Assembly: GCA_902590345.1 (NCBI GenBank)
Contig: CACIWK010000001.1
Span: 40,341 to 104,340, forward strand
DNA length: 64,000 nucleotides
Origin: an uncultured Pelagibacteraceae bacterium
Lineage (GTDB): Bacteria > Pseudomonadota > Alphaproteobacteria > Pelagibacterales > AG-422-B15
Direction of reading: 5' to 3'
Shown here: positions 53,315 through 63,660 of the stretch, piece after piece
How positions within the stretch are numbered: position 1 is the first letter of the stretch
Layout: the number at the start of each line of letters is the position of its first letter
Position numbers and translations under genes: made by a program
The notes under the pieces: generated by a model
The model's input: the letters and a program-made list of their open reading frames with translations, nothing else
The model's database searches: none
What the model was told of the DNA's origin: nothing

Positions 53315-53938
53315 ATGTTACCAAAAGATCTCATCGATAAATATAAAAACTGGAAGGAAAACTCTTTCGCACAAGAAAAAGATCACTTTGAAAGACTTGC
53401 AAGAGAAGGCCAGTCACCTAAATACATGATTATATCGTGCGTAGATTCAAGAGTTGATCCGAATGCTATATTCAAATCAAAAGCTGGTGAAATGCTAGTT
53501 CATAGAAATATTGCTAATATAGTACCACCCTATAGTCAATTAAAGGAACATAGCGGAACAATTGCAGCTATCGAATTTGGTGTAACAGCATTAAATATTA
53601 AAAATATTATTATAATTGGGCACTCAGGATGTGGAGGTATAAAGAATGGGTATCATATGTGTCATGAAAATAATTTTGATGATAACTCATCAATTTCTAA
53701 TTGGCTAAAGTTACTAAAACCAGTGTACGACAACATTTCAAGCGAAGGAAACGATGAGAAAGTTAAGTACATGGAGAAAGAAAGCATTATCGTATCATTA
53801 GAGAATTTAAGTAAGTATCCCTTTATAAATACTGAAGTAAAGTCAGGTGAAATTATGCTTTATGGGGTTTGGAATGAAATTGGAACTGGATCTATAGAGA
53901 CGTATGATTTTGAGAAAAAAAAGTTTGATTTAATTTAA
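53315..53938 (+). CDS. Beta-class carbonic anhydrase
   Basis: 207 aa. Zinc ligands CVDSR and GHSGCGG. Confidence 0.85.
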   Translation: MLPKDLIDKYKNWKENSFAQEKDHFERLAREGQSPKYMIISCVDSRVDPNAIFKSKAGEMLVHRNIANIVPPYSQLKEHSGTIAAIEFGVTALNIKNIIIIGHSGCGGIKNGYHMCHENNFDDNSSISNWLKLLKPVYDNISSEGNDEKVKYMEKESIIVSLENLSKYPFINTEVKSGEIMLYGVWNEIGTGSIETYDFEKKKFDLI

Positions 53939-53939
53939 T

Positions 53940-54587
53940 CTAATTTAATTTAAGAACTTCTGAAGAATATACAGAATTTAAATACTCTGGATGATCAAGT
54001 TTCATTAATATTGAAGGACCATTTAGAGCAGAATCAGGTGTGCGATGAAGTATACCATTGCTACCACCGGTAAATATTGCAATGTTCCATTTATCAATGA
54101 AATGTAATTTACTTTTATCTCTAACGATCTTTTCATTTGGTTCACCTGCCTCATAGGCTAGACGGTCAGCATCCTGATTTTGTATCCATTCTGTACCTTG
54201 TCCAGCATAAGTGACCAAAAGACGTCTTGGTACGTTATCAACATGATAACGTCTACACTCTCGTTTTGTCCCAAGCCAAAAGCAAAGTGTATCAGTTTTT
54301 TCAATCAGTAAGAATGTTCTGCAAACGGTTTCCATATCTGCAAGCCAATAATTATAAAACTCAGTTGAACTTAACTGGTTAGGAATTATTTCCTGGACCA
54401 AATTTTTTAAATCTTCTTTCAAATTAATTGAACTAAGAGTGCCCTCAACTCCAAAGTCATTTTTCATTAATTTTTGAAAGAAAGAACCTGCACCCTCAGG
54501 TTGTTCACGCTCCAATATACCTAATTTATAGTCAGTATCCTTGAATTCTTTTAAAGATTCTAGATTGTCAGCTTTAAATAAGCTCAT
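53940..54587 (-). CDS. DUF1826-like protein, co-oriented downstream of znuA
   Basis: 215 aa. It starts 18 nt after the znuA stop. C-terminal motif GILHRTP. The family assignment is from memory of DUF1826 neighbours of zinc and COG0523 genes and is not verified. Confidence 0.45.
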   Translation of the reverse strand: MSLFKADNLESLKEFKDTDYKLGILEREQPEGAGSFFQKLMKNDFGVEGTLSSINLKEDLKNLVQEIIPNQLSSTEFYNYWLADMETVCRTFLLIEKTDTLCFWLGTKRECRRYHVDNVPRRLLVTYAGQGTEWIQNQDADRLAYEAGEPNEKIVRDKSKLHFIDKWNIAIFTGGSNGILHRTPDSALNGPSILMKLDHPEYLNSVYSSEVLKLN

Positions 54588-54605: not shown

Positions 54606-55715
54606 TTAGCAATTTTCAAATGAAGATGCCATGTCACCTATTAGATCAAAATAAAGATCTTTTCCTGGCTCCAATTCAGCTCCTAATGGATCTAAAACGG
54701 CAGACTTTATACCAGTATCACTTGCAATTGTTTCTGCAATACTTGGGTTAAATTGAGGCTCTGAAAATAAACAATTAACACTCTCATGCTCAATTACTTC
54801 TCTTATTTCTGCAAGTTGCTTCGCACCAGGCAACACCTCAGGATTTACAGTAAGAGCACCAATTACTTCAATACCAAATCTCTGCTCAAAATATTGATAG
54901 GCATCATGAAACACAATGTATGTTGCATCACTATTTATTTTTGATCTTGTATTGTCTATTAACTGGTCAAGGTCATTAATAGCATTCGCAGCATTGGATG
55001 AATAAATTGATTTATTGGCAGGATCAATTTCAGATAATTCTTCAGAAGCAATACTTACAATTGTTTTTGCTATTTCTGGATCTAGCCAAAAATGTATATC
55101 GTGCTCACCGTGATGGTGACCGTGATCATCATGTCCTTCGTGTTCATCATGATCGTCATGTCCGTCAGCGTGTTCTTCATGATCGTCGTGACCCTCGTGT
55201 TCGTCATGTTCATCATGTTCGTCGTGTTCGTCGTGTTCGTCGTGTTCGTCATGTTCATCGTGTTCGTCATGTTCGTCGTGTTCGTCGTGTTCGTCGTGTC
55301 CATCAGCATGATCTTCGTGTTCATCATGATCATCGTGGTGATCTTCAAATACGTTTTTTTCTCTAAATTTTAGTAAATCTATCTGATCTGACTCCATTAA
55401 GGTTACTTTTCTGGCATCATTAGCAATTGAGTCTAGAGGGTCTTCTAGAAAAGACTCTAAATCTTCCCCAATCCAAAAAACTACATCAGCTTCTTGTAAC
55501 ATAGTTGCATGAGAAGGCTTTAATTGGAATGTGTGAGGTGAGGCACTACCATCGACTAATAAACTAGGCTTGCCCACTCCGTCCATCACATAGCTAACTA
55601 ACGAATGAACTGGTTTGATTGAAACAACAACTTTTGTTTCTGCATTAGCAAAAGATGAATATGACAGAATTGAAATAATTGATAATAAAAGTCCAAATTT
55701 GAGTTGTAATTTCAT
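54606..55715 (-). CDS. znuA: Zinc ABC transporter periplasmic binding protein with a very long His/Asp/Glu loop
   Basis: I chose the start at MKLQLKFGLLLSIISILSYSSFANA (signal peptide). VVVSIKPVHSLV, SPHTFQLKPS and HFWLDP are cluster A-I SBP motifs. The central loop is about 80 aa of H/D/E including (DEH)x11. Confidence 0.88.
   Translation of the reverse strand: MKLQLKFGLLLSIISILSYSSFANAETKVVVSIKPVHSLVSYVMDGVGKPSLLVDGSASPHTFQLKPSHATMLQEADVVFWIGEDLESFLEDPLDSIANDARKVTLMESDQIDLLKFREKNVFEDHHDDHDEHEDHADGHDEHDEHDEHDEHDEHDEHDEHDEHDEHDEHDEHEGHDDHEEHADGHDDHDEHEGHDDHGHHHGEHDIHFWLDPEIAKTIVSIASEELSEIDPANKSIYSSNAANAINDLDQLIDNTRSKINSDATYIVFHDAYQYFEQRFGIEVIGALTVNPEVLPGAKQLAEIREVIEHESVNCLFSEPQFNPSIAETIASDTGIKSAVLDPLGAELEPGKDLYFDLIGDMASSFENC
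55197..55295 (-). repeat. 11 tandem copies of a 9-bp unit (GAYGAACAY on the coding strand) encoding (Asp-Glu-His)11 inside znuA
   Basis: Top-strand units are RTGTTCRTC, counted one by one from 55197 to 55295. A 12th, degenerate unit follows. Confidence 0.9.
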
Positions 55716-55748
55716 AGATTTATTGCTTTCATGGTTAAATAAATATAG

Positions 55749-55763
55749 TGTTATAATATAACA
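55749..55763. promoter_or_regulatory. Zur-box-like palindrome 1, in the 71-nt znuA / znuC divergent spacer
   Basis: TGTTATAATATAACA is a perfect 15-bp palindrome (TGTTAT-N3-ATAACA). It contains a TATAAT hexamer and matches the core of the published proteobacterial Zur consensus (..ATGTTATAnTATAACAT..). Confidence 0.8.
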
Positions 55764-55786
55764 AAAAAATTTATCAAGCATTATTT

Positions 55787-56536
55787 ATGAACGATAGTGA
55801 AACTCTAATTAGATTGACTAATGCAGGAATTTTTAAAAATAAAAAATGGCTTGTTCGAAATGTTGATTTAGAAATAAAACGAGGGCAAATTGTAACGTTA
55901 ATTGGTCCCAATGGTTCTGGTAAAACGACAACCGCTAAAATAGCTCTAGGTTTATATAAGACTATTAGTGGAAGAGTTGAGAGAAATACAACAAAAATAT
56001 CCTATGTACCCCAAAAAGTGTCGATTGATTGGACATTGCCTTTAAGGGTTGCTGACTTCATGGTTTTAACTCAAAACTTAAAAGTAGATGATATTGATAG
56101 TGCTCTCAATTTAACTGGTGTGCAGCATTTAAAAGATAGCAATCTTAGAGATTTGTCTGGAGGTGAGTTTCAAAGAGTTTTGTTAGCGCGCGCAATAGCA
56201 AAAAAACCTGAGCTCTTAGTTCTTGATGAGCCAGTACAGGGTGTAGATTTTACTGGAGAAGTTGCCTTGTACTCCCTAATAAAAACTATCTCTGAAAATC
56301 TAAACTGTGGGATACTCCTTATCTCTCATGATTTGCATGTGGTAATGTCTGCAACTGACTACGTTGTTTGTTTGAATGGTCATGTATGTTGCTGTGGAAC
56401 GCCAAGAGACGTTGCAGAAAGTAATCCTTATAAACAATTATTTGGAGAGAAATCTGCAAAACTGTTATCGATATATGAACACAACCATGATCATATTCAT
56501 TCATCAGATGGTAATATCATTAAGGAAGTTGAGTAG
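55787..56536 (+). CDS. znuC: Zinc ABC transporter ATP-binding protein
   Basis: 249 aa. GPNGSGKTT, LSGGEFQR, LVLDEP. Confidence 0.88.
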   Translation: MNDSETLIRLTNAGIFKNKKWLVRNVDLEIKRGQIVTLIGPNGSGKTTTAKIALGLYKTISGRVERNTTKISYVPQKVSIDWTLPLRVADFMVLTQNLKVDDIDSALNLTGVQHLKDSNLRDLSGGEFQRVLLARAIAKKPELLVLDEPVQGVDFTGEVALYSLIKTISENLNCGILLISHDLHVVMSATDYVVCLNGHVCCCGTPRDVAESNPYKQLFGEKSAKLLSIYEHNHDHIHSSDGNIIKEVE

Positions 56537-56538
56537 TT

Positions 56539-57336
56539 ATGTTGGATGATTTTATCGTAAGAGCTATAATAGCAGGTATTGGGATTGCCCTTGTTACTGG
56601 ACCGTTAGGTTGTTTTGTGGTTTGGAGGAGATTATCTTTTTTTGGTGACACGTTAGCTCATTCAGCATTACTAGGTGTTTTAATTTCAATAACATTAGAT
56701 ATAAATGTTTCCTTAACTATCTTTGTTGTTGCATCTCTGGTTGCAATACTTTTATTAAGGCTTGAAAGAACAACCAATCTAGCAGGGGACTCACTCCTAG
56801 GCCTGATATCACACTCATCACTAGCGATTGGGTTGGTAATACTTGGTTTTTTATCCTTTATAAGATTTGATGTTATGGGTGTTTTGTTTGGAGATATTCT
56901 CTCAGTTAATTCGAATGACTTGCTAGTAATATGGATTGGAGGGGCTTTGATACTTGTTGTTTTAAGCTATATTTGGAAACCTCTTTTTGCATCAACAGTA
57001 AATTATGAGTTAGCTGAAGCTGAAGGTATGAAGCCAGAAAGAGTAAATGCCATATTCACAATTTTACTTGCAGCCCTGATTGCGATATCTATTAAGATGA
57101 TCGGCGTACTTCTTATAACTGGTTTACTAATTATACCAACTGCAATGGCTCGTAATCTATCTGATAATCCAAGACAAATGGTAATACTATCTATTATTGG
57201 CGGTTTATTATCGGTTTTGATCGGACTGTATGCTTCTTTTGAAATAAACACTTCATCAGGACCATCAATTGTTGTAGTTGCTTTAATTTTATTTATCCTA
57301 TCATTAATGAGAATCAGAAAAAAAAATTATGAATAA
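56539..57336 (+). CDS. znuB: Zinc ABC transporter permease
   Basis: 265 aa. It has 8-9 TM segments and the GCFVVWRRLSFFGDTLAHSAL motif typical of ZnuB and MntB-type permeases. Confidence 0.88.
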   Translation: MLDDFIVRAIIAGIGIALVTGPLGCFVVWRRLSFFGDTLAHSALLGVLISITLDINVSLTIFVVASLVAILLLRLERTTNLAGDSLLGLISHSSLAIGLVILGFLSFIRFDVMGVLFGDILSVNSNDLLVIWIGGALILVVLSYIWKPLFASTVNYELAEAEGMKPERVNAIFTILLAALIAISIKMIGVLLITGLLIIPTAMARNLSDNPRQMVILSIIGGLLSVLIGLYASFEINTSSGPSIVVVALILFILSLMRIRKKNYE

Positions 57337-57748
57337 AAATAGTAAAAAGTTAACAAAAAACCAAAGAATTGTACTCGAGTTCGTACAAAAATCTAACAGA
57401 CCCGTTAAAGCTTACTCTATTCTAAACAATGTCAATAAACGAGGAATCAAAGCCCCACCTCAAGTCTATAGAGCCCTAGAAAAGTTAATAAAAATTGGGG
57501 AAATACATAAAATTGAAAGTCAAAATGCATTTGTTGCTTGCAATTCAAAATGTGTGGAACCGCACGGAACAATTTTTTCAATTTGTAAAAGCTGTGATCA
57601 AATAGATGAGATAAGTGATAAAAAACTTTATAAATATTTGTCTGAAGTAAGAGATATGAATGGTCTTAAATTAAGTGGATATAATTTAGAGTTATTCGGT
57701 ACTTGTAAGACATGTGATCAAAAACATCTTCAAAATACGAATCAATAG
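57329..57748 (+). CDS. zur: Fur-family zinc uptake regulator
   Basis: 139 aa. Winged helix (VYRALEKLIKIGEIHK) and two CxxC pairs (CKSC, CKTC). It overlaps znuB by 8 nt, giving the znuCB-zur arrangement. Confidence 0.8.
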   Translation: MNKNSKKLTKNQRIVLEFVQKSNRPVKAYSILNNVNKRGIKAPPQVYRALEKLIKIGEIHKIESQNAFVACNSKCVEPHGTIFSICKSCDQIDEISDKKLYKYLSEVRDMNGLKLSGYNLELFGTCKTCDQKHLQNTNQ

Positions 57749-57755
57749 ATTATAC

Positions 57756-57774
57756 AATGTTATAAAATAACATT
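57756..57774. promoter_or_regulatory. Zur-box-like palindrome 2, upstream of the DUF2796 gene
   Basis: AATGTTAT-aaa-ATAACATT has 8-bp perfect arms. It lies 8 nt after the zur stop and 59 nt before the next ATG. Confidence 0.78.
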
Positions 57775-57832
57775 TTTCTAGACACACAAAATTTTTTTCA
57801 ATAAAATTTTTTAAATTAAAAAGGGAGCATGG

Positions 57833-58471
57833 ATGAAAAAAAATATTTACTATTCGCTACTAATATCTGCAATGGTATCAGTTTCGGCGGCTGAAGAAAC
57901 AAGACAAGTTGATAAACATGAGCATGGTGTTGGTGAATTAAATATTGCTATTGAAGGAAATGCCATAGATTTTGAATTTTTTATTCCTGGAGCTGATATT
58001 GTAGGTTTTGAATATGAAGCTAAAACTGAGTCTGATATTGCTCTTGTAAATGCAGCTTTAGAAAAATTTGAAAATTTTGATAATATTTTTAGTCTTTCCG
58101 AGTCCTCAAATTGTAATTTAGTAAATTCTGAAATTGGAATCAATCAAGACGATGACCATGATGATCACGATGACCATGATGAGCATGATGAGCACGATGA
58201 CCATGATAATCACGATGACCATGATGAGCACGATGACCATGATGAGCATGATGACCATGATGAGCATGATGAAGAAGCTCATAACGAGTTTGTTGCACAC
58301 TACTCATTTAATTGCGGAAATATAAAAGAAATTGACAGAATTAGCTTTCCATATTTTACTACTTTTCCAAACTCTGGAGAACTTGAGGTACAATTCGTAT
58401 CAGAGATTGGTTCGACAAGTTTTGAAGTGGAGGGAGATGAGCCTTTCATAGACTTAAAAGGAAAAATCTAA
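57833..58471 (+). CDS. DUF2796 / ZrgA-like secreted His-rich metal-binding protein
   Basis: 212 aa. Signal peptide, HEHGVGELNIAIEGNAIDFEFFIPGADIVGFEYE (DUF2796 pattern), and a central run of ~45 aa of D, H and E. Confidence 0.75.
   Translation: MKKNIYYSLLISAMVSVSAAEETRQVDKHEHGVGELNIAIEGNAIDFEFFIPGADIVGFEYEAKTESDIALVNAALEKFENFDNIFSLSESSNCNLVNSEIGINQDDDHDDHDDHDEHDEHDDHDNHDDHDEHDDHDEHDDHDEHDEEAHNEFVAHYSFNCGNIKEIDRISFPYFTTFPNSGELEVQFVSEIGSTSFEVEGDEPFIDLKGKI
58151..58267 (+). repeat. 13 tandem 9-bp units (GAT-GAN-CAY) encoding (Asp-Asp/Glu-His)13
   Basis: Units counted from gatgaccat at 58151 to gatgagcat ending at 58267. Confidence 0.9.
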
Positions 58472-59170
58472 TTGGATGAAAGTATAATTAAAATTGATTC
58501 AGTAAGATTTTATTGGTCAAAAAAAAGTAATTTCAAGATATTTGTTCCAAACCTAGAAATTAAAAAAGGTGAAAAAGTTCTCTTATTGGGAGAAAGCGGC
58601 TCAGGCAAAACCACACTCCTTTCCCTAATGTGTGGTTTTCTTAATCCATTATCTGGAAATATAAGTATTAACGGTAACACTATTAACCAACTTTCATCTA
58701 AAACTAGGGATGAGTATCGTGCTGATAATATAGGAATTATTTTCCAACAATTTAACTTGCTGCCTTATGCGAATGTTGTTGATAATGTTTTACTACCTTT
58801 ATATTTTTCAAAAGTAAGATCAAACAACGTTTCCAACAAAAAAGAAAAGGTAATTGAACTTTTTAAACAATTGAGATTACCAGATGATATTGCACAATTT
58901 AGGGCAAGTAGTTTAAGTATGGGTCAGCAACAAAGAGTGGCAGTGGCTCGGGCACTAATTGGGAACCCATCGCTGATCATTGCTGACGAACCAACTTCCT
59001 CACTTGATGCAGATGCGCAAAAGATTTTTTTAAATTTGATGTTTGAACAAATTTCAGAGAATAACTCTACGTTATTGATGGTTTCACATGATAAATCGCT
59101 CTCTAATCAATTTGATCGATTAATTGACATAAACGAAATACTCATAAGGGAAGATAAGTCATGTTATTAA
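58472..59170 (+). CDS. ABC transporter ATP-binding protein (MacB/LolD-type), ZrgB-like
   Basis: 232 aa, TTG start directly after the preceding stop. GESGSGKTT, LSMGQQQR, IIADEPTS. Confidence 0.8.
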   Translation: MDESIIKIDSVRFYWSKKSNFKIFVPNLEIKKGEKVLLLGESGSGKTTLLSLMCGFLNPLSGNISINGNTINQLSSKTRDEYRADNIGIIFQQFNLLPYANVVDNVLLPLYFSKVRSNNVSNKKEKVIELFKQLRLPDDIAQFRASSLSMGQQQRVAVARALIGNPSLIIADEPTSSLDADAQKIFLNLMFEQISENNSTLLMVSHDKSLSNQFDRLIDINEILIREDKSCY

Positions 59171-60411
59171 AACTTTCGTTCAGCTCTCTTTATGCGCGCT
59201 TAGTTACTGTGGGTATGACAATTCTTGCAATTTCAGTATCCCTTATGCTTTATATGAGTGTAGAAAAGTTAAGAACTTCAGCATATACAAGTTTTACCGA
59301 TACAATCTCACAGACTGATTTAATTGTTGGCGCAAGAGCTAGTTCAGTGCAACTGTTGTTATATTCAGTTTTTAGAATTGGAAACGCTACGAATAATATA
59401 ACATGGGAGAGTTATTTAGACTTAGTGAGCAAAGAAGAAGTTGATTGGACAGTTCCAATTTCGTTGGGAGATAGCCATAAGGGATTTAGAGTAATGGGTA
59501 CCAACAAAGAATTTTTTTCTCGATATAAATATAGAGGTAGTCAGTCTGTAAGTATTGATAAAGGTTATTTATTTGAGGATCTATACGACGTCGTTTTGGG
59601 TGCTGGGGTTGCTGAAAAACTAGGATATAAAATCGGTACTTCACTTGTAGTTTCCCATGGATTACAGTCTTTTTCAGATCACGATGATCAACCTTTTAGA
59701 GTATCAGGGATACTTAAAAAGACAGGAACACCTGTAGATAATACTGTAATCGTCAGCCTGGCTGCTATTGAAGCAATTCATGTTGATTGGTCAACTGGAG
59801 CTAAAATACCAGGACAACTAACACCTATTGATGAGATACGCGAAATGGATCTAACTCCTAAAAATATCACTGCTGCACTAGTAGGTGTTAAATCAAAATT
59901 AACTATCTTTCAACTTCAGCGCTGGATCAATGAGTATCCTGAAGAAGCGATGACTGCAATTCTTCCTGGCGCTGCGCTGCAGGAGCTATGGCGAGTAGTT
60001 GGAGTGATTGAAAACTTATTATTAGGGATATCGGTGGTTGTAATATTCACAACACTCGTTGGGATGGCAGCGATTATGTTTTCAAGTTTAAGTGAGAGAA
60101 GAAGAGAAATGGCGATCTGGAGAGCTATGGGTGCATCTCCTTTCACAGTGATTGGTTTATTAATGCTTGAAGCAATATTTATTTCAATTCTAAGTATTAC
60201 ATTCAGTGTAGTTTTATTATTTTGTGTGTTAAATTTATTACAACCATGGATTGATTACAATTATGGCATCTTAGTAAACATTGAAATGTTAGCTATAAAA
60301 GATATGTATGTTTTTGCTGTGTTTATCATTGCCTCAATAACAGTCAGTTTATTACCAGCAATAAGAGCTTACTGGTTTTCTATTAATGATGGTATGACGA
60401 TTAAATTATGA
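59161..60411 (+). CDS. ABC transporter permease, FtsX/MacB-type with a large periplasmic domain, ZrgC-like
   Basis: 416 aa. One N-terminal TM segment, a ~250-aa periplasmic domain, and three C-terminal TM segments (the FtsX fold). It overlaps the ATPase gene by 10 nt. Confidence 0.75.
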   Translation: MLLKLSFSSLYARLVTVGMTILAISVSLMLYMSVEKLRTSAYTSFTDTISQTDLIVGARASSVQLLLYSVFRIGNATNNITWESYLDLVSKEEVDWTVPISLGDSHKGFRVMGTNKEFFSRYKYRGSQSVSIDKGYLFEDLYDVVLGAGVAEKLGYKIGTSLVVSHGLQSFSDHDDQPFRVSGILKKTGTPVDNTVIVSLAAIEAIHVDWSTGAKIPGQLTPIDEIREMDLTPKNITAALVGVKSKLTIFQLQRWINEYPEEAMTAILPGAALQELWRVVGVIENLLLGISVVVIFTTLVGMAAIMFSSLSERRREMAIWRAMGASPFTVIGLLMLEAIFISILSITFSVVLLFCVLNLLQPWIDYNYGILVNIEMLAIKDMYVFAVFIIASITVSLLPAIRAYWFSINDGMTIKL

Positions 60412-60872
60412 TTAAAAAATTAAAAATCTTATTAATTATTTTTATTTTTATTCCGCTTTCTGCTTACTCAGCGCCAAAAGAAATAGACTGGGATGACCTA
60501 ATACCATGGACATCTGTTTTTAGCCCCGGCGAGGTAAAGTTTAATAAAAATCTCGAAGATAAGGAAGTTAAGATCCCTGGATATGTTTTGCCATTGGATA
60601 TGTACGGCCGAGGTATTAACACCTTTTTGTTAGTTCCATACATTGGAGCATGCATTCATGTCCCTCCACCAGCGCCTAATCAAATCGTTTATGTAGAAGC
60701 GGAGAATCCTTGGGAAGGTCTAGCCTGGTGGGAACCTGTTTACGTAACTGGAAAAATTAAAATTGAAAATCAAAATATTGAAGACCTTGCAATCGTAGGC
60801 TATGAATTAGCTGCAAACAATATCGAATATTATCGTGGTGAAACAGGGGTTCACGGATTCTTTGATTGGTAG
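60408..60872 (+). CDS. DUF3299 protein, ZrgD-like
   Basis: 154 aa. Signal peptide and the hallmark LLVPYIGACIHVPPPAPNQIVYV. It overlaps the permease gene by 4 nt. Confidence 0.7.
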   Translation: MIKKLKILLIIFIFIPLSAYSAPKEIDWDDLIPWTSVFSPGEVKFNKNLEDKEVKIPGYVLPLDMYGRGINTFLLVPYIGACIHVPPPAPNQIVYVEAENPWEGLAWWEPVYVTGKIKIENQNIEDLAIVGYELAANNIEYYRGETGVHGFFDW

Positions 60873-60888
60873 GATTTTACGAGTCTAT

Positions 60889-61296
60889 TTACTTATCCTT
60901 AAAGTACTCAATTATATCTGATTTATAATCAAGAGGTGGGAACCTTCCAATAATATTTGATTGATAGTTCCTTGGCCTATATCTTCTTCTGAGAAACCCA
61001 TCTTTAGCTTTTGTATACGATGATACTAAATTTTTTAGAGATGAAATATATAATGGTTTTTTTGGGTCTATATCTCCAAAAACGTAAGTAAAACGCTTAT
61101 CGGCAGACAGAGAGATTGCACAAGACCGCTTGCAGCAACTCATACAATTTACACCTCTGATGATAACGTCATCTTGTCTTTTGAAACTGTTCACAATTTT
61201 TTTTGCAAAGCGCTCGCCTCCTCGAGAATTATATTTTTCTTCTCGTCCATCTCGACAAGTTAAACAGATCGATAAAACAGGTTTAGTGTTGCTCAT
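60889..61296 (-). CDS. DUF1636-like Cys-rich putative metal-binding protein
   Basis: 135 aa. Cys pattern CLTC..(36 aa)..CMSCCKRSC. It is divergent from the COG0523 gene, with a Zur-box-like site between them. Confidence 0.55.
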   Translation of the reverse strand: MSNTKPVLSICLTCRDGREEKYNSRGGERFAKKIVNSFKRQDDVIIRGVNCMSCCKRSCAISLSADKRFTYVFGDIDPKKPLYISSLKNLVSSYTKAKDGFLRRRYRPRNYQSNIIGRFPPLDYKSDIIEYFKDK

Positions 61297-61312
61297 AAAT
61301 TGCTAAATTTAA

Positions 61313-61327
61313 TGTTATAATATAACA
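61313..61327. promoter_or_regulatory. Zur-box-like palindrome 3, in the DUF1636 / COG0523 divergent spacer
   Basis: TGTTATAATATAACA is identical to box 1 over all 15 nt. It lies 17 nt from the DUF1636 start codon and 63 nt from the COG0523 ATG. Confidence 0.8.
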
Positions 61328-61389
61328 ACTTGTATAATGCTTTTTTTTTAATTACAAGGTATGTTTAAAAAAAACTAATTTTGTAAAAT

Positions 61390-62364
61390 ATGGAAAATAG
61401 TTCATCACAAGTACCAGTCACTGTATTAACAGGTTTTTTAGGAGCAGGTAAAACTACTTTATTAAATCGTATTTTAACTGAGCAACACGGTCGTCGTTAT
61501 GCTGTAATTGTTAATGAGTTTGGTGAGCAAGGAATAGACAATGATCTCGTAGTTGATGCTGATGAAGAAGTTTTTGAAATGAACAATGGATGTATATGTT
61601 GCACAGTTAGGGGTGATTTAATACGTATACTTGGAGGTCTAATGAAGCGTGCAGATCAGCTGGATGCAATAATTGTAGAGACAACTGGACTTGCTGACCC
61701 TGCACCTGTAGCTCAAACATTTTTTGTCGATCAAGATGTTGCAGACCGAACTAAATTAGACGCTATTGTCACTGTCGCAGATGCTGTCCACCTTAGCACT
61801 CAACTTGGAGAACATCATGAGGCAGAAGAGCAGATCGCTTTTGCAGATGTAGTACTGCTCAATAAGATTGATTTAGTTGATCAAAGTCAGATTACCGGCG
61901 TTAAGGATCGCATTCGAAAAATTAATCCTTATACAAAAATTATTGAAACAAATAGATGCGCTGCACCTCTTGAAGAAATTCTTGGTCTTAATGCTTTTAG
62001 TCTTGATCGCGTCTTAGAGGTTGAACCTGATTTTTTGGACTCTGATCATGATCATGAACATGATGACGATGTAACCAGTGTTTCTTTTGTTTCTAACACT
62101 CCGCTTGACTTAGAAAAATTTGAGAAGTGGTTTGGAAACCTATTACAGACGCATGGTCAAAATATTCTTAGATCAAAGGGCATTCTTGATTTTAAGAATG
62201 AAAAAGATCGCTACGTATTTCAAGGAGTTCATATGCTCATGGATGCATCTCCTATGGGTCCATGGCCTGAGAAAAGTATTCGAAATTCCCGGGTTGTATT
62301 TATTGGTCGCAAATTAGAGACAATGAATTTGAAAGAGGGCTTCGAAAGTTGTAAATCAGATTAG
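61390..62364 (+). CDS. COG0523 (CobW/G3E family) GTPase, zinc-metallochaperone type
   Basis: 324 aa. Walker A GFLGAGKTT, metal motif GCICCTV, ETTGLADP, and NKIDL. A His/Asp linker (DSDHDHEHDDD) precedes the CobW C-terminal domain. Confidence 0.85.
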   Translation: MENSSSQVPVTVLTGFLGAGKTTLLNRILTEQHGRRYAVIVNEFGEQGIDNDLVVDADEEVFEMNNGCICCTVRGDLIRILGGLMKRADQLDAIIVETTGLADPAPVAQTFFVDQDVADRTKLDAIVTVADAVHLSTQLGEHHEAEEQIAFADVVLLNKIDLVDQSQITGVKDRIRKINPYTKIIETNRCAAPLEEILGLNAFSLDRVLEVEPDFLDSDHDHEHDDDVTSVSFVSNTPLDLEKFEKWFGNLLQTHGQNILRSKGILDFKNEKDRYVFQGVHMLMDASPMGPWPEKSIRNSRVVFIGRKLETMNLKEGFESCKSD

Positions 62365-62375
62365 TTCTGCTTTAG

Positions 62376-63395
62376 ATGAATAACGAGTCTGTAATAAAAT
62401 CCCGCTTTGAAGAAAATGGAAAGGTCTTTGAAACAGGCGCTCCTGTTACAGGTGCAGTTTCAATAGAGAATGCGGTTGCAGTTGGATTTGGAGACGGATC
62501 AATAAGGTTTTTTTGGCCAGATAATGATCCCTTAGAAGTTCAAGCACACTCTGGCGCAATACTAAGCATTGCTTCAAGTAATGATGGGGTCATAACAGGC
62601 GGGCAAGATGGTCGTTTTTTAAAAATATCGACAAATGCTGAGATCGAGGAAATTTACAATTTTGGAACGCGTTGGGTAGATAATGTAGCGGCATATGAAA
62701 GTATGGTTTTATGTTCGTCTGGAAAAAATGTCTACATCTGGTCAGATGAAAATGATAAGCCAAAAATACTAGAGCATCAAAGTACGATAGGTGGTATCGC
62801 AATTGATCAAAATGGAAGGAGAATTGCTGTCTCATGTTATGGAGGAGTAACTTTGTGGAGATTAGAAAAAAACAAATGGAAATCATCAAAATTTGCTTGG
62901 AAAGGTTCACACGGTAAAGTTGGGTTTAGTCCAGATGGGAAGTATCTGGTGACAACAATGCAAGAAAATGAGCTTCATGCTTGGCGAATACGAGATAAAG
63001 CAAGTTTTGCAATGTCAGGTTACCCGTCAAAAGTAAAAAGTTTTACATGGGCCGGAGACAACCCTTATCTAGTAACAGCGGGTGCAAAAGAAGCTATCTG
63101 CTGGCCATTCGATGGTAAGGAGGGTCCAAAAGGACGTAAGCCCCTTTGTATTGCAAGTGGTGGTCAACAAAACGCAACTTTTGTTGAGTCATTACCAGGA
63201 GAGAAAGCAGTTTTTGCTGGATTTCGTAACGGCATGGTTCTTCTCTCAGAATTATCAGAACATCCAAATGACGTCCTTATCCAAAATCCTACAGGATCAG
63301 AAGTATCAAATATTAGTATTTCACCCGATCGATCCCATATATTGGTCGGAGACTCAAAAGGCCAAATTTTATGGTCACCTCTTTGGGAGCAATAA
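62376..63395 (+). CDS. WD40-like beta-propeller protein
   Basis: 339 aa with repeated strand patterns (GDGSIRFF, ITGGQDGRFLKI, GKNVYIW, YGGVTLW, ENELHAWR, GAKEAICW, DSKGQILW). It starts 11 nt after the COG0523 stop. Confidence 0.7.
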   Translation: MNNESVIKSRFEENGKVFETGAPVTGAVSIENAVAVGFGDGSIRFFWPDNDPLEVQAHSGAILSIASSNDGVITGGQDGRFLKISTNAEIEEIYNFGTRWVDNVAAYESMVLCSSGKNVYIWSDENDKPKILEHQSTIGGIAIDQNGRRIAVSCYGGVTLWRLEKNKWKSSKFAWKGSHGKVGFSPDGKYLVTTMQENELHAWRIRDKASFAMSGYPSKVKSFTWAGDNPYLVTAGAKEAICWPFDGKEGPKGRKPLCIASGGQQNATFVESLPGEKAVFAGFRNGMVLLSELSEHPNDVLIQNPTGSEVSNISISPDRSHILVGDSKGQILWSPLWEQ

Positions 63396-63396
63396 A

Positions 63397-63660
63397 ATGG
63401 AAGGTATGTTTCAGAAAAAAATATCAAATAAAAGTGCTACTCAAAATTTAAAAAATCTAATCATAGAGAAATTTAAATTAAATGAAGATGCTACTGTAAG
63501 CATTGCTGAACTAAGCTGTCATGAGCCAAATTGCCCACCAAAAGAAACAATTATTACGATCCGTAAAGCTGATGGAAGCACTTCCAACCTACGAATTCAT
63601 AAAGCTTTGGATCAGATACAGAGGGAAGACGTTAAGACACTAAGACATGAAAAAAATTAA
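63397..63660 (+). CDS. 87-aa protein of unknown function with a CHEPNC motif
   Basis: The ATG lies 1 nt after the WD40 stop. The track lists it as a 192-aa ORF from 63082, but that N-terminus lies out of frame over the WD40 gene. The translation is MEGMFQKK...SIAELSCHEPNCPPKETIITIRKADG... Confidence 0.5.
   Translation: MEGMFQKKISNKSATQNLKNLIIEKFKLNEDATVSIAELSCHEPNCPPKETIITIRKADGSTSNLRIHKALDQIQREDVKTLRHEKN

Follow-up and report, generated by a model that had tools for sequence, protein, structure and literature searches.

Why should a SAR11 bacterium keep, directly beside its ZnuABC zinc importer, a second ATP-consuming system that appears to answer to the same regulator? The question is raised by a tightly packed four-gene zrg operon at 57833-60872 on the + strand (57756-60872 with the operator ahead of it) of a 64,000-nucleotide stretch of DNA, hereafter the window, from an uncultured Pelagibacteraceae bacterium (contig CACIWK010000001.1, positions 40,341 to 104,340). 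That such a system is retained implies that it and ZnuABC are not simply redundant, and that zinc scarcity shapes this genome. We conclude that the operon is, close to certainty, a Zur-controlled member of the known Zrg/PA4063-PA4066 family, and that it very likely serves zinc acquisition rather than export. On the evenly balanced question of mechanism, its type VII ATP-binding cassette (ABC) motor may do periplasmic work on zinc carriers, with entry of the metal through a different route or along a path not recognised so far.

The mechanism of this family is disputed: the Vibrio papers describe a zinc importer, Valencia et al. remarked on the MacB-like topology, and Secli et al. argue, from models and genetics, for a pyochelin-cobalt exporter (PMC11481552). 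The original prediction for this locus had called the system a second zinc importer. A second, Zur-box-preceded Zrg-type system beside ZnuABC is indeed present, whereas the word importer is over-specific, the sequence offering no evidence of transmembrane zinc import. The accompanying remark, which found uptake an odd task for a MacB fold, identified a real mismatch, one already in print (PMC9820375, with PMC11481552 arguing for the exporter).

A Zrg-type operon and its operator

The first gene, zrgA (57833-58471, +; 212 residues), encodes a predicted secreted, ferredoxin-like zinc-binding protein with a loop rich in His and Asp (HD-rich), an assignment drawn from Pfam, NCBIfam and PDB homologues. 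The protein begins with a signal-like segment, matches Pfam PF10986 ZrgA, formerly DUF2796, at 2e-48 and 164.8 bits (cut-off 27.4), passes the NCBIfam equivalog NF047873, 'zinc uptake protein ZrgA' (192.8 bits, with 185 required), and matches the solved structures of Vibrio cholerae ZrgA (8ezw) and Pseudomonas aeruginosa PA4063 (7ahw), both at about 5e-15. Its H29, H31 and E60, an HxH near the N-terminus and the Glu of a GFE, align with the site-1 zinc ligands H35, H37 and E66 of V. cholerae, and Cys94/Cys160 with the disulfide pair C100/C195, the roles of these residues having been described for the V. cholerae protein (PMC9820375); the fourth, His, ligand of site 1 is not assignable within the HD tract. 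This His/Asp/Glu tract spans residues 106-149 (44 residues; 8% His, 14% Asp, 13% Glu) and is encoded by a tandem repeat of period 9/45 (58148-58272, +) whose length differs between close strains, ZrgA being called at 195-232 residues among loci with a 100% identical permease.

The second gene (58472-59170, +; 232 residues) encodes the ABC ATPase, named ZrgC in Table 1 of PMC9817125 and homologous to PA4064, as assigned by Pfam and NCBIfam. The third (59161-60411, +; 416 residues) encodes the type VII ABC permease, ZrgB, a PA4065 homologue, as assigned by Pfam, an AlphaFold2 model and Foldseek. The fourth, zrgE (60408-60872, +; 154 residues), encodes a predicted secreted DUF3299 protein with an OB fold, from Pfam, PDB and fold searches. 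The zrgA stop directly abuts the TTG start of the ATPase gene, the ATPase and permease genes overlap by 10 nt, and the permease and zrgE genes overlap by 4 nt (ATGA); the open reading frame (ORF) list and the junction check agree with the earlier description of four tightly packed genes, adjacent or overlapping by 4-10 nt.

That the first and fourth proteins belong to DUF2796 and DUF3299, as had been proposed, was borne out by profile searches, the fourth matching DUF3299 at 1.8e-33. It also matches the PA4066 structure (PDB 4hsp) at 1.4e-22, and a fold search ranks 4hsp first, followed by OB folds. The C-x-H-x-PPP-xx-NQ motif reported for it is present as GACIHVPPPAPNQ, with C82, H84, P86, P88, N91 and Q92 invariant across 22 homologues, and just 6 DUF3299-like ORFs of related loci are without the motif. 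The name first given to this gene has to be changed: it had been called ZrgD and ZrgE had been reported missing, but under the Vibrio nomenclature DUF3299 is ZrgE and DUF2607 is ZrgD, so the fourth gene corresponds to ZrgE and PA4066, and it is ZrgD that is absent. The V. cholerae proteins have been described as a single-pass protein of 101 residues (ZrgD) and a periplasmic protein of 150 residues, homologous to PA4066 (ZrgE; PMC9820375); the V. parahaemolyticus annotation gives DUF3299 for zrgE and DUF2607 for zrgD, and ZrgD is not universal in the family, V. fischeri and Photobacterium profundum lacking it (PMC9817125). No match to DUF2607 appears among 11 small ORFs of the window, and the operon has no room for ZrgD, since the spacer between zur and zrgA is only 84 bp. 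Some related operons carry two tandem DUF3299 (zrgE) genes (L010, L013, L084), and zrgE stands first, not last, in eight Rhodospirillales-type loci.

Within this 84-bp spacer lies a Zur-type operator, the perfect 19-bp palindrome AATGTTATAAAATAACATT (57756-57774, assigned to neither strand), 8 nt past the zur stop and 58 nt ahead of the zrgA start, in keeping with the Zur-like box that had been described for the operon. Its 15-bp core TGTTATNNNATAACA has three exact copies in the 64 kb, all of them within promoter regions of this cluster of zinc genes: in the divergent spacer of znuA and znuC (55749-55763), before zrgA (57758) and in the divergent spacer of the DUF1636 and cobW genes (61313-61327). 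When up to one mismatch is allowed there are four matches against 0.56 expected, a number that none of 100 shuffles reached. The box recurs at the equivalent position in 8 of 10 SAR11 relatives, and a strict pattern, GTTAT(N1-5)ATAAC, searched upstream of zrgA, finds it in all eight SAR11 loci carrying the zrgA start region. Repression by Zur at 57756-57774 is a prediction from the operator sequence, and Zur regulation, like the growth phenotypes under zinc limitation, would carry over by analogy with the Vibrio literature. Two candidate sigma-70-like promoters flank or overlap the box (57729-57807, +; TTCAAA-N18-TACAAT ending at 57758 and TAGACA-N17-TAAAAT ending at 57807); these are consensus matches from a scan that yielded 29 sites against 36 in shuffles and are not significant on their own, and neither the promoter nor the terminator consensus scan gave anything above background.

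The family to which these genes belong is large and widely spread. An identical permease sequence turns up in over 1000 blocks of a public collection, in marine single-cell and metagenome assemblies; the nearest GTDB species representatives by permease are uncultured Pelagibacteraceae at 88, 86 and 76% identity; and one DUF3299 relative is assigned by NCBI to Pelagibacterales. These matches place the window in SAR11. At 50% identity the permease family comprises 3911 clusters with E <=1e-3, 714 of them with E <=1e-30. A search with a 10-sequence subset of permeases gave 86 related loci, which are spread over Alpha- and Gammaproteobacteria as well as Truepera and Desulfobacterales, and among which 69 hold all four zrg genes together and 54 hold them in exactly the order of the window; most of the others are truncated contigs. 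The Zrg-type composition first suggested for the operon is well illustrated by Aliivibrio sifiae (Vibrionaceae, L079), whose operon is collinear and whose four proteins are 34, 49, 49 and 40% identical to those described here. Rhodobacterales operons have one more gene, between the permease gene and zrgE, whose secreted product is about 350 residues long (L025:9268-10323, with the same position in L018 and L022).

A type VII motor and where it may act on zinc

The ATPase matches Pfam ABC_tran at 8.5e-34 and comes closest, each time below the NCBIfam cut-off, to LolD-, FtsE- and MacB-type ATPases. Walker A (GESGSGKT, 40-47) and Walker B (LIIADE, 168-173) are intact, and the signature reads LSMGQ instead of the canonical LSGGQ, a trait of the family as a whole: LS[VIMT]GQ occurs in 73 of 78 family ATPases and LSGGQ in none. 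The permease matches both MacB_PCD (2.9e-10) and FtsX (7.2e-11), and hydropathy and the model give it four hydrophobic segments or transmembrane helices, with roughly 240 residues of periplasmic Porter/Sabre domain between TM1 and TM2, which agrees with the LolD/MacB-like ATPase and FtsX-type permease with a large periplasmic domain of the original prediction. The AlphaFold2 model (pLDDT 94.9) has as its nearest Foldseek relatives MacB (1.5e-16), LolCDE (LolE 1.4e-15), Spr0694/5, HrtBA, YbbAP, BceAB and FtsX, and no Zrg-type permease structure is among its PDB matches. ATPase and permease together would form a type VII (MacB/FtsX) ABC machine.

With FtsEX and BceAB among these structural relatives, one may ask whether any metal is moved at all, or whether ATP is spent on switching ZrgE or ZrgA, as a periplasmic partner with a role in zinc sensing or envelope remodelling during zinc starvation. 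ZrgE is without a known ligand, and PA4063 has been proposed as a sensor on account of its weak affinity (PMC9820375), both of which would suit such a role. Next to the module, however, stands no conserved regulator or enzyme partner, and the ZnuA fusions and His-rich loops described below argue for the handling of metal in bulk, so that we regard a purely signalling or activating function as very improbable.

Sequence conservation in the permease was read from an alignment of 63 diverse homologues, with LolF as the outside comparison. In the periplasmic domain, D104 and D193 are conserved in all 63, H166, H174 and H207 are each His in 62, and H106 is His in 50; none of these Asp and His residues is shared with LolF. 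D53 is also among the conserved periplasmic residues. The only conserved polar residues of the membrane helices are E284 and E337, and because LolF carries Glu and Gln at these positions they appear generic to FtsX-type permeases; they were accordingly rejected as Zrg-specific zinc ligands.

This pattern bears on the reading adopted in the Vibrio work, that ZrgA is a solute-binding protein and that the ATPase-permease carries Zn2+ across the inner membrane as a second importer, of high or low affinity, redundant with ZnuABC. The NCBI family name 'zinc uptake protein ZrgA', the Zur box and the Znu neighbourhood favour it, as do the growth phenotypes: V. cholerae needs zrgA for zinc-limited growth (PMC9820375), and in V. 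parahaemolyticus zrgA is the main zinc-acquisition factor and is induced about 200-fold by TPEN (PMC9817125). In addition, V. cholerae ZrgA has a sub-nanomolar zinc site (PMC9820375, PMC9817125), and Zrg supports growth without znuABC (PMC8248653). Against direct import, all solved relatives of the permease are type VII mechanotransmitters or extractors and none is an importer, and its membrane helices hold no Zrg-specific conserved His, Asp, Cys or Glu. We consider direct import possible but doubtful; what chiefly keeps it under consideration is that V. cholerae Zrg works in the absence of ZnuBC.

Further traits of the family lie on the periplasmic side. In 28 of the 150 nearest cluster representatives, an insertion rich in His, Asp and Glu follows directly after H207 in the periplasmic Sabre domain, in some cases exceeding 100 residues and resembling the loops of ZnuA and ZrgA (e.g., P0131, P0157, P0160, P0193 and P0246); the permease of the window itself has no such insertion. 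Moreover, the permease has been fused to ZnuA in two divergent, independent cases (L087:6001-8178, L088 and L089, represented by P0128; L090:6001-8328, P0178), each with a fifth hydrophobic segment ahead of a C-terminal ZnuA domain, in operons that read Zrg-type ATPase, permease::ZnuA, znuC and znuB and that lack ZrgA and ZrgE. An origin in faulty gene calling was considered and rejected, because one fusion is identical on at least 24 contigs from three sources (Logan, JGI and ENA) and the divergent second case has the same operon context. The fusions also tell against direct import, since they still precede a complete znuC-znuB importer, which would be redundant were the fused permease an importer itself. 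Taken as traits of the family, the conserved periplasmic His and Asp residues, the His-rich insertions and the ZnuA fusions point, at the level of sequence, to periplasmic metal handling.

The MacB fold of the permease invites the opposite direction of transport, namely that a metallophore-metal complex, or else a competing metal such as cobalt, is driven out of zinc-starved cells by a MacB-like machine that thereby guards them from mismetallation; in P. aeruginosa, loss of PA4065 raises cell cobalt in a pyochelin-dependent manner (PMC11481552, PMC13083405). Yet a survey of SAR11 genomes turned up no siderophore synthesis or uptake systems (PMC4771312), the Vibrio phenotypes indicate zinc acquisition, and the ZnuA fusion and the His-rich loops of the permease fit capture better than disposal. 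Neither is an efflux partner evident: no gene for a membrane-fusion adaptor or outer-membrane channel flanks the operon in the window, a partner elsewhere in the genome being possible, and three is the highest count that any family reaches among 141 ORFs flanking the module in 76 diverse, non-SAR11 loci, HlyD/MFP, TolC and TonB receptors not being among the 25 recurrent families listed. Export is therefore improbable here, and both export and a sensing or activating role are less likely for this operon than a part in acquisition. Operator, Znu neighbourhood, Vibrio genetics, His-rich loops, ZnuA fusions and the lack of a recurrent efflux partner or known metallophore together make zinc acquisition rather than export the very likely function.

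Permease architecture and the pattern of conserved residues are what lead us to periplasmic work on zinc carriers, a reading whose elements for SAR11 (zinc as the substrate, a hand-over in the periplasm and the final route into the cytoplasm) we infer. In such a scheme, Zur would repress the module when zinc is sufficient, and upon depletion the module would be expressed together with znuABC and the COG0523 GTPase; ZrgA would be exported to the periplasm and bind Zn2+ at its HxH...E site and its HD-rich loop; ATP hydrolysis in the cytoplasm would drive movements of the large, His- and Asp-bearing periplasmic domain of the permease; this work would either strip zinc from ZrgA or load ZrgA and would pass the metal towards an inner-membrane entry route; and the OB-fold protein ZrgE may act as an accessory.

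Several observations weigh against this scheme. In V. cholerae, ZrgABC remains beneficial after loss of znuABC (PMC8248653), which means that ZnuBC cannot be an obligatory recipient and that zinc must have a further way in. The zinc affinity of PA4063 is only micromolar and PA4066 showed no evident zinc binding, and loss of PA4065 raised cellular cobalt and did not lower zinc (PMC11481552). Furthermore, the strict Zur-box pattern lies upstream of zrgA in only 9 of 62 non-SAR11 loci, operator motifs varying by taxon.

A more specific version, which we offer as speculative and on the unlikely side, casts Zrg as an ATP-driven periplasmic zinc loader or extractor and not as a membrane importer: its His-lined Sabre domain would pull zinc away from ZrgA or from other, strong ligands and transfer it to a carrier feeding a conventional importer, ZnuA-ZnuBC where present and other routes otherwise. 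If so, the permease::ZnuA fusions would have this coupling built in permanently, and the module would be an energised front end that lets a minimal SAR11 cell win organically complexed zinc in the surface ocean. The host is ecologically dominant, and the most useful leads are the ZnuA fusions and the His-rich permease loops of its relatives; targets for mutagenesis and structure determination are the periplasmic His residues, these loops and fusions, and the LSxGQ signature.

The surrounding zinc-starvation island

The Zur boxes and the layout of zinc genes make the region a compact zinc-starvation island, composed of znuA-DUF1826 (-), znuC-znuB-zur, the zrg operon, DUF1636 (-), and the gene pair for a COG0523 GTPase and a WD40 protein. 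The neighbouring ZnuABC genes were correctly recognised at the outset; znuA lies on the - strand, and znuC, znuB and the Fur-family gene lie on the + strand. Upstream of zrg lie znuC (55787-56536, +), znuB (56539-57336, +) and, directly before the operon, zur (57329-57748, +), whose product scores highest in NCBIfam against Zur, though at 65.8 bits it stays under the 167 set for the E. coli type; its naming as Zur is therefore a putative one that rests on this match and on context. The longest ORF for znuA (54606-55781; 391 residues) extends across the Zur box, and translation most likely begins further in, with the Met at 55715 (MKLQLKF..., a signal peptide), giving a gene at 54606-55715 (-) and a protein of 369 residues with an 80-residue His-rich loop. 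The adjacency of znuABC-zur and zrg is found in SAR11, in the same arrangement in Sulfitobacter, and in five other lineages.

Directly downstream of znuA lies a DUF1826 gene (53940-54587, -), probably co-transcribed with it under the znuA Zur box; the gene of a beta-class carbonic anhydrase, itself a zinc enzyme, converges on DUF1826 (53315-54587 for the two) and is not preceded by a Zur box. On the far side of zrg, a DUF1636 gene (60889-61296, -; six Cys) diverges at the third Zur box from the gene of a COG0523/CobW GTPase (61390-62364, +), which is followed by a WD40 beta-propeller protein (62376-63395, +), an unusual member of a bacterial zinc-starvation operon, and by an 87-residue ORF without a family (block 60889-63660). 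This block varies among SAR11 relatives, being missing in L007 and lacking DUF1636 in L008.

The HD-coding region of znuA is likewise a tandem repeat (55121-55337), and called ZnuA lengths range from 391 to 511 residues across strains with a 100% identical permease. Relative to two long-read contigs (L001 and L003), the segment bounded by the His-repeats of znuA and zrgA (55178-58276), which takes in znuC, znuB and zur together with the adjoining halves of the two repeat-bearing genes, is only about 79.5% identical and its flanks about 98%; both break points fall inside HD-coding repeats, and recombination at the repeats or a strain-chimeric assembly may be the cause.

Relation to known systems

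High-affinity zinc uptake has been described as an exception to the minimal metal repertoire of SAR11, and Hogle et al. reported the conserved znuA-Fur-ABC synteny of the clade and did not describe the Zrg genes (PMC4771312); we found no paper linking Zrg to SAR11. Beside ZnuABC, with which it shares the regulator and probably the metal, the Zrg module is a neighbour here and a fusion partner in some relatives. The periplasmic binder ZnuA also carries an HD-rich loop, whereas the folds of binder and permease are unrelated to those of ZnuABC (cluster A-I), ZrgA being ferredoxin-like and the permease MacB_PCD+FtsX, not ABC-3-type.

MacAB-TolC, LolCDE, HrtBA and FtsEX have in common with Zrg the permease fold, with four transmembrane helices and a Porter/Sabre domain between TM1 and TM2, and a nucleotide-binding domain that is separate or fused. 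Zrg differs from them in having no adjacent adaptor or outer-membrane partner, in its LS[VIMT]GQ signature, in its family-specific periplasmic His and Asp residues and His-rich insertions, and in being dedicated to zinc-starvation regulons.

With the ZrgABCDE systems of V. cholerae and V. parahaemolyticus, the operon shares the site-1 ligands, the disulfide pair, the His-rich loop and the Zur operator; it differs in lacking ZrgD (DUF2607), which most Vibrio operons contain, and its four-gene layout is also that of V. fischeri. Closest in composition is PA4063-PA4066 of P. aeruginosa, which has the same four families in the same order, likewise without ZrgD and with a Zur box upstream; the ZrgA and ZrgE of the window match the solved PA4063 (7ahw) and PA4066 (4hsp), and PA4064 and PA4065 are likened to the ATPase and permease by family and gene order. 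Compared with PA4063, the HD-rich loop of ZrgA is much longer (44 residues); the host is a streamlined marine alphaproteobacterium; and the operon is joined to a znuABC-zur island. Since no siderophore systems were found in the clade, the SAR11 host would also be without pyochelin, and a host without known metallophores thus provides a natural control for the dispute between importer and exporter that the P. aeruginosa and Vibrio systems have raised.

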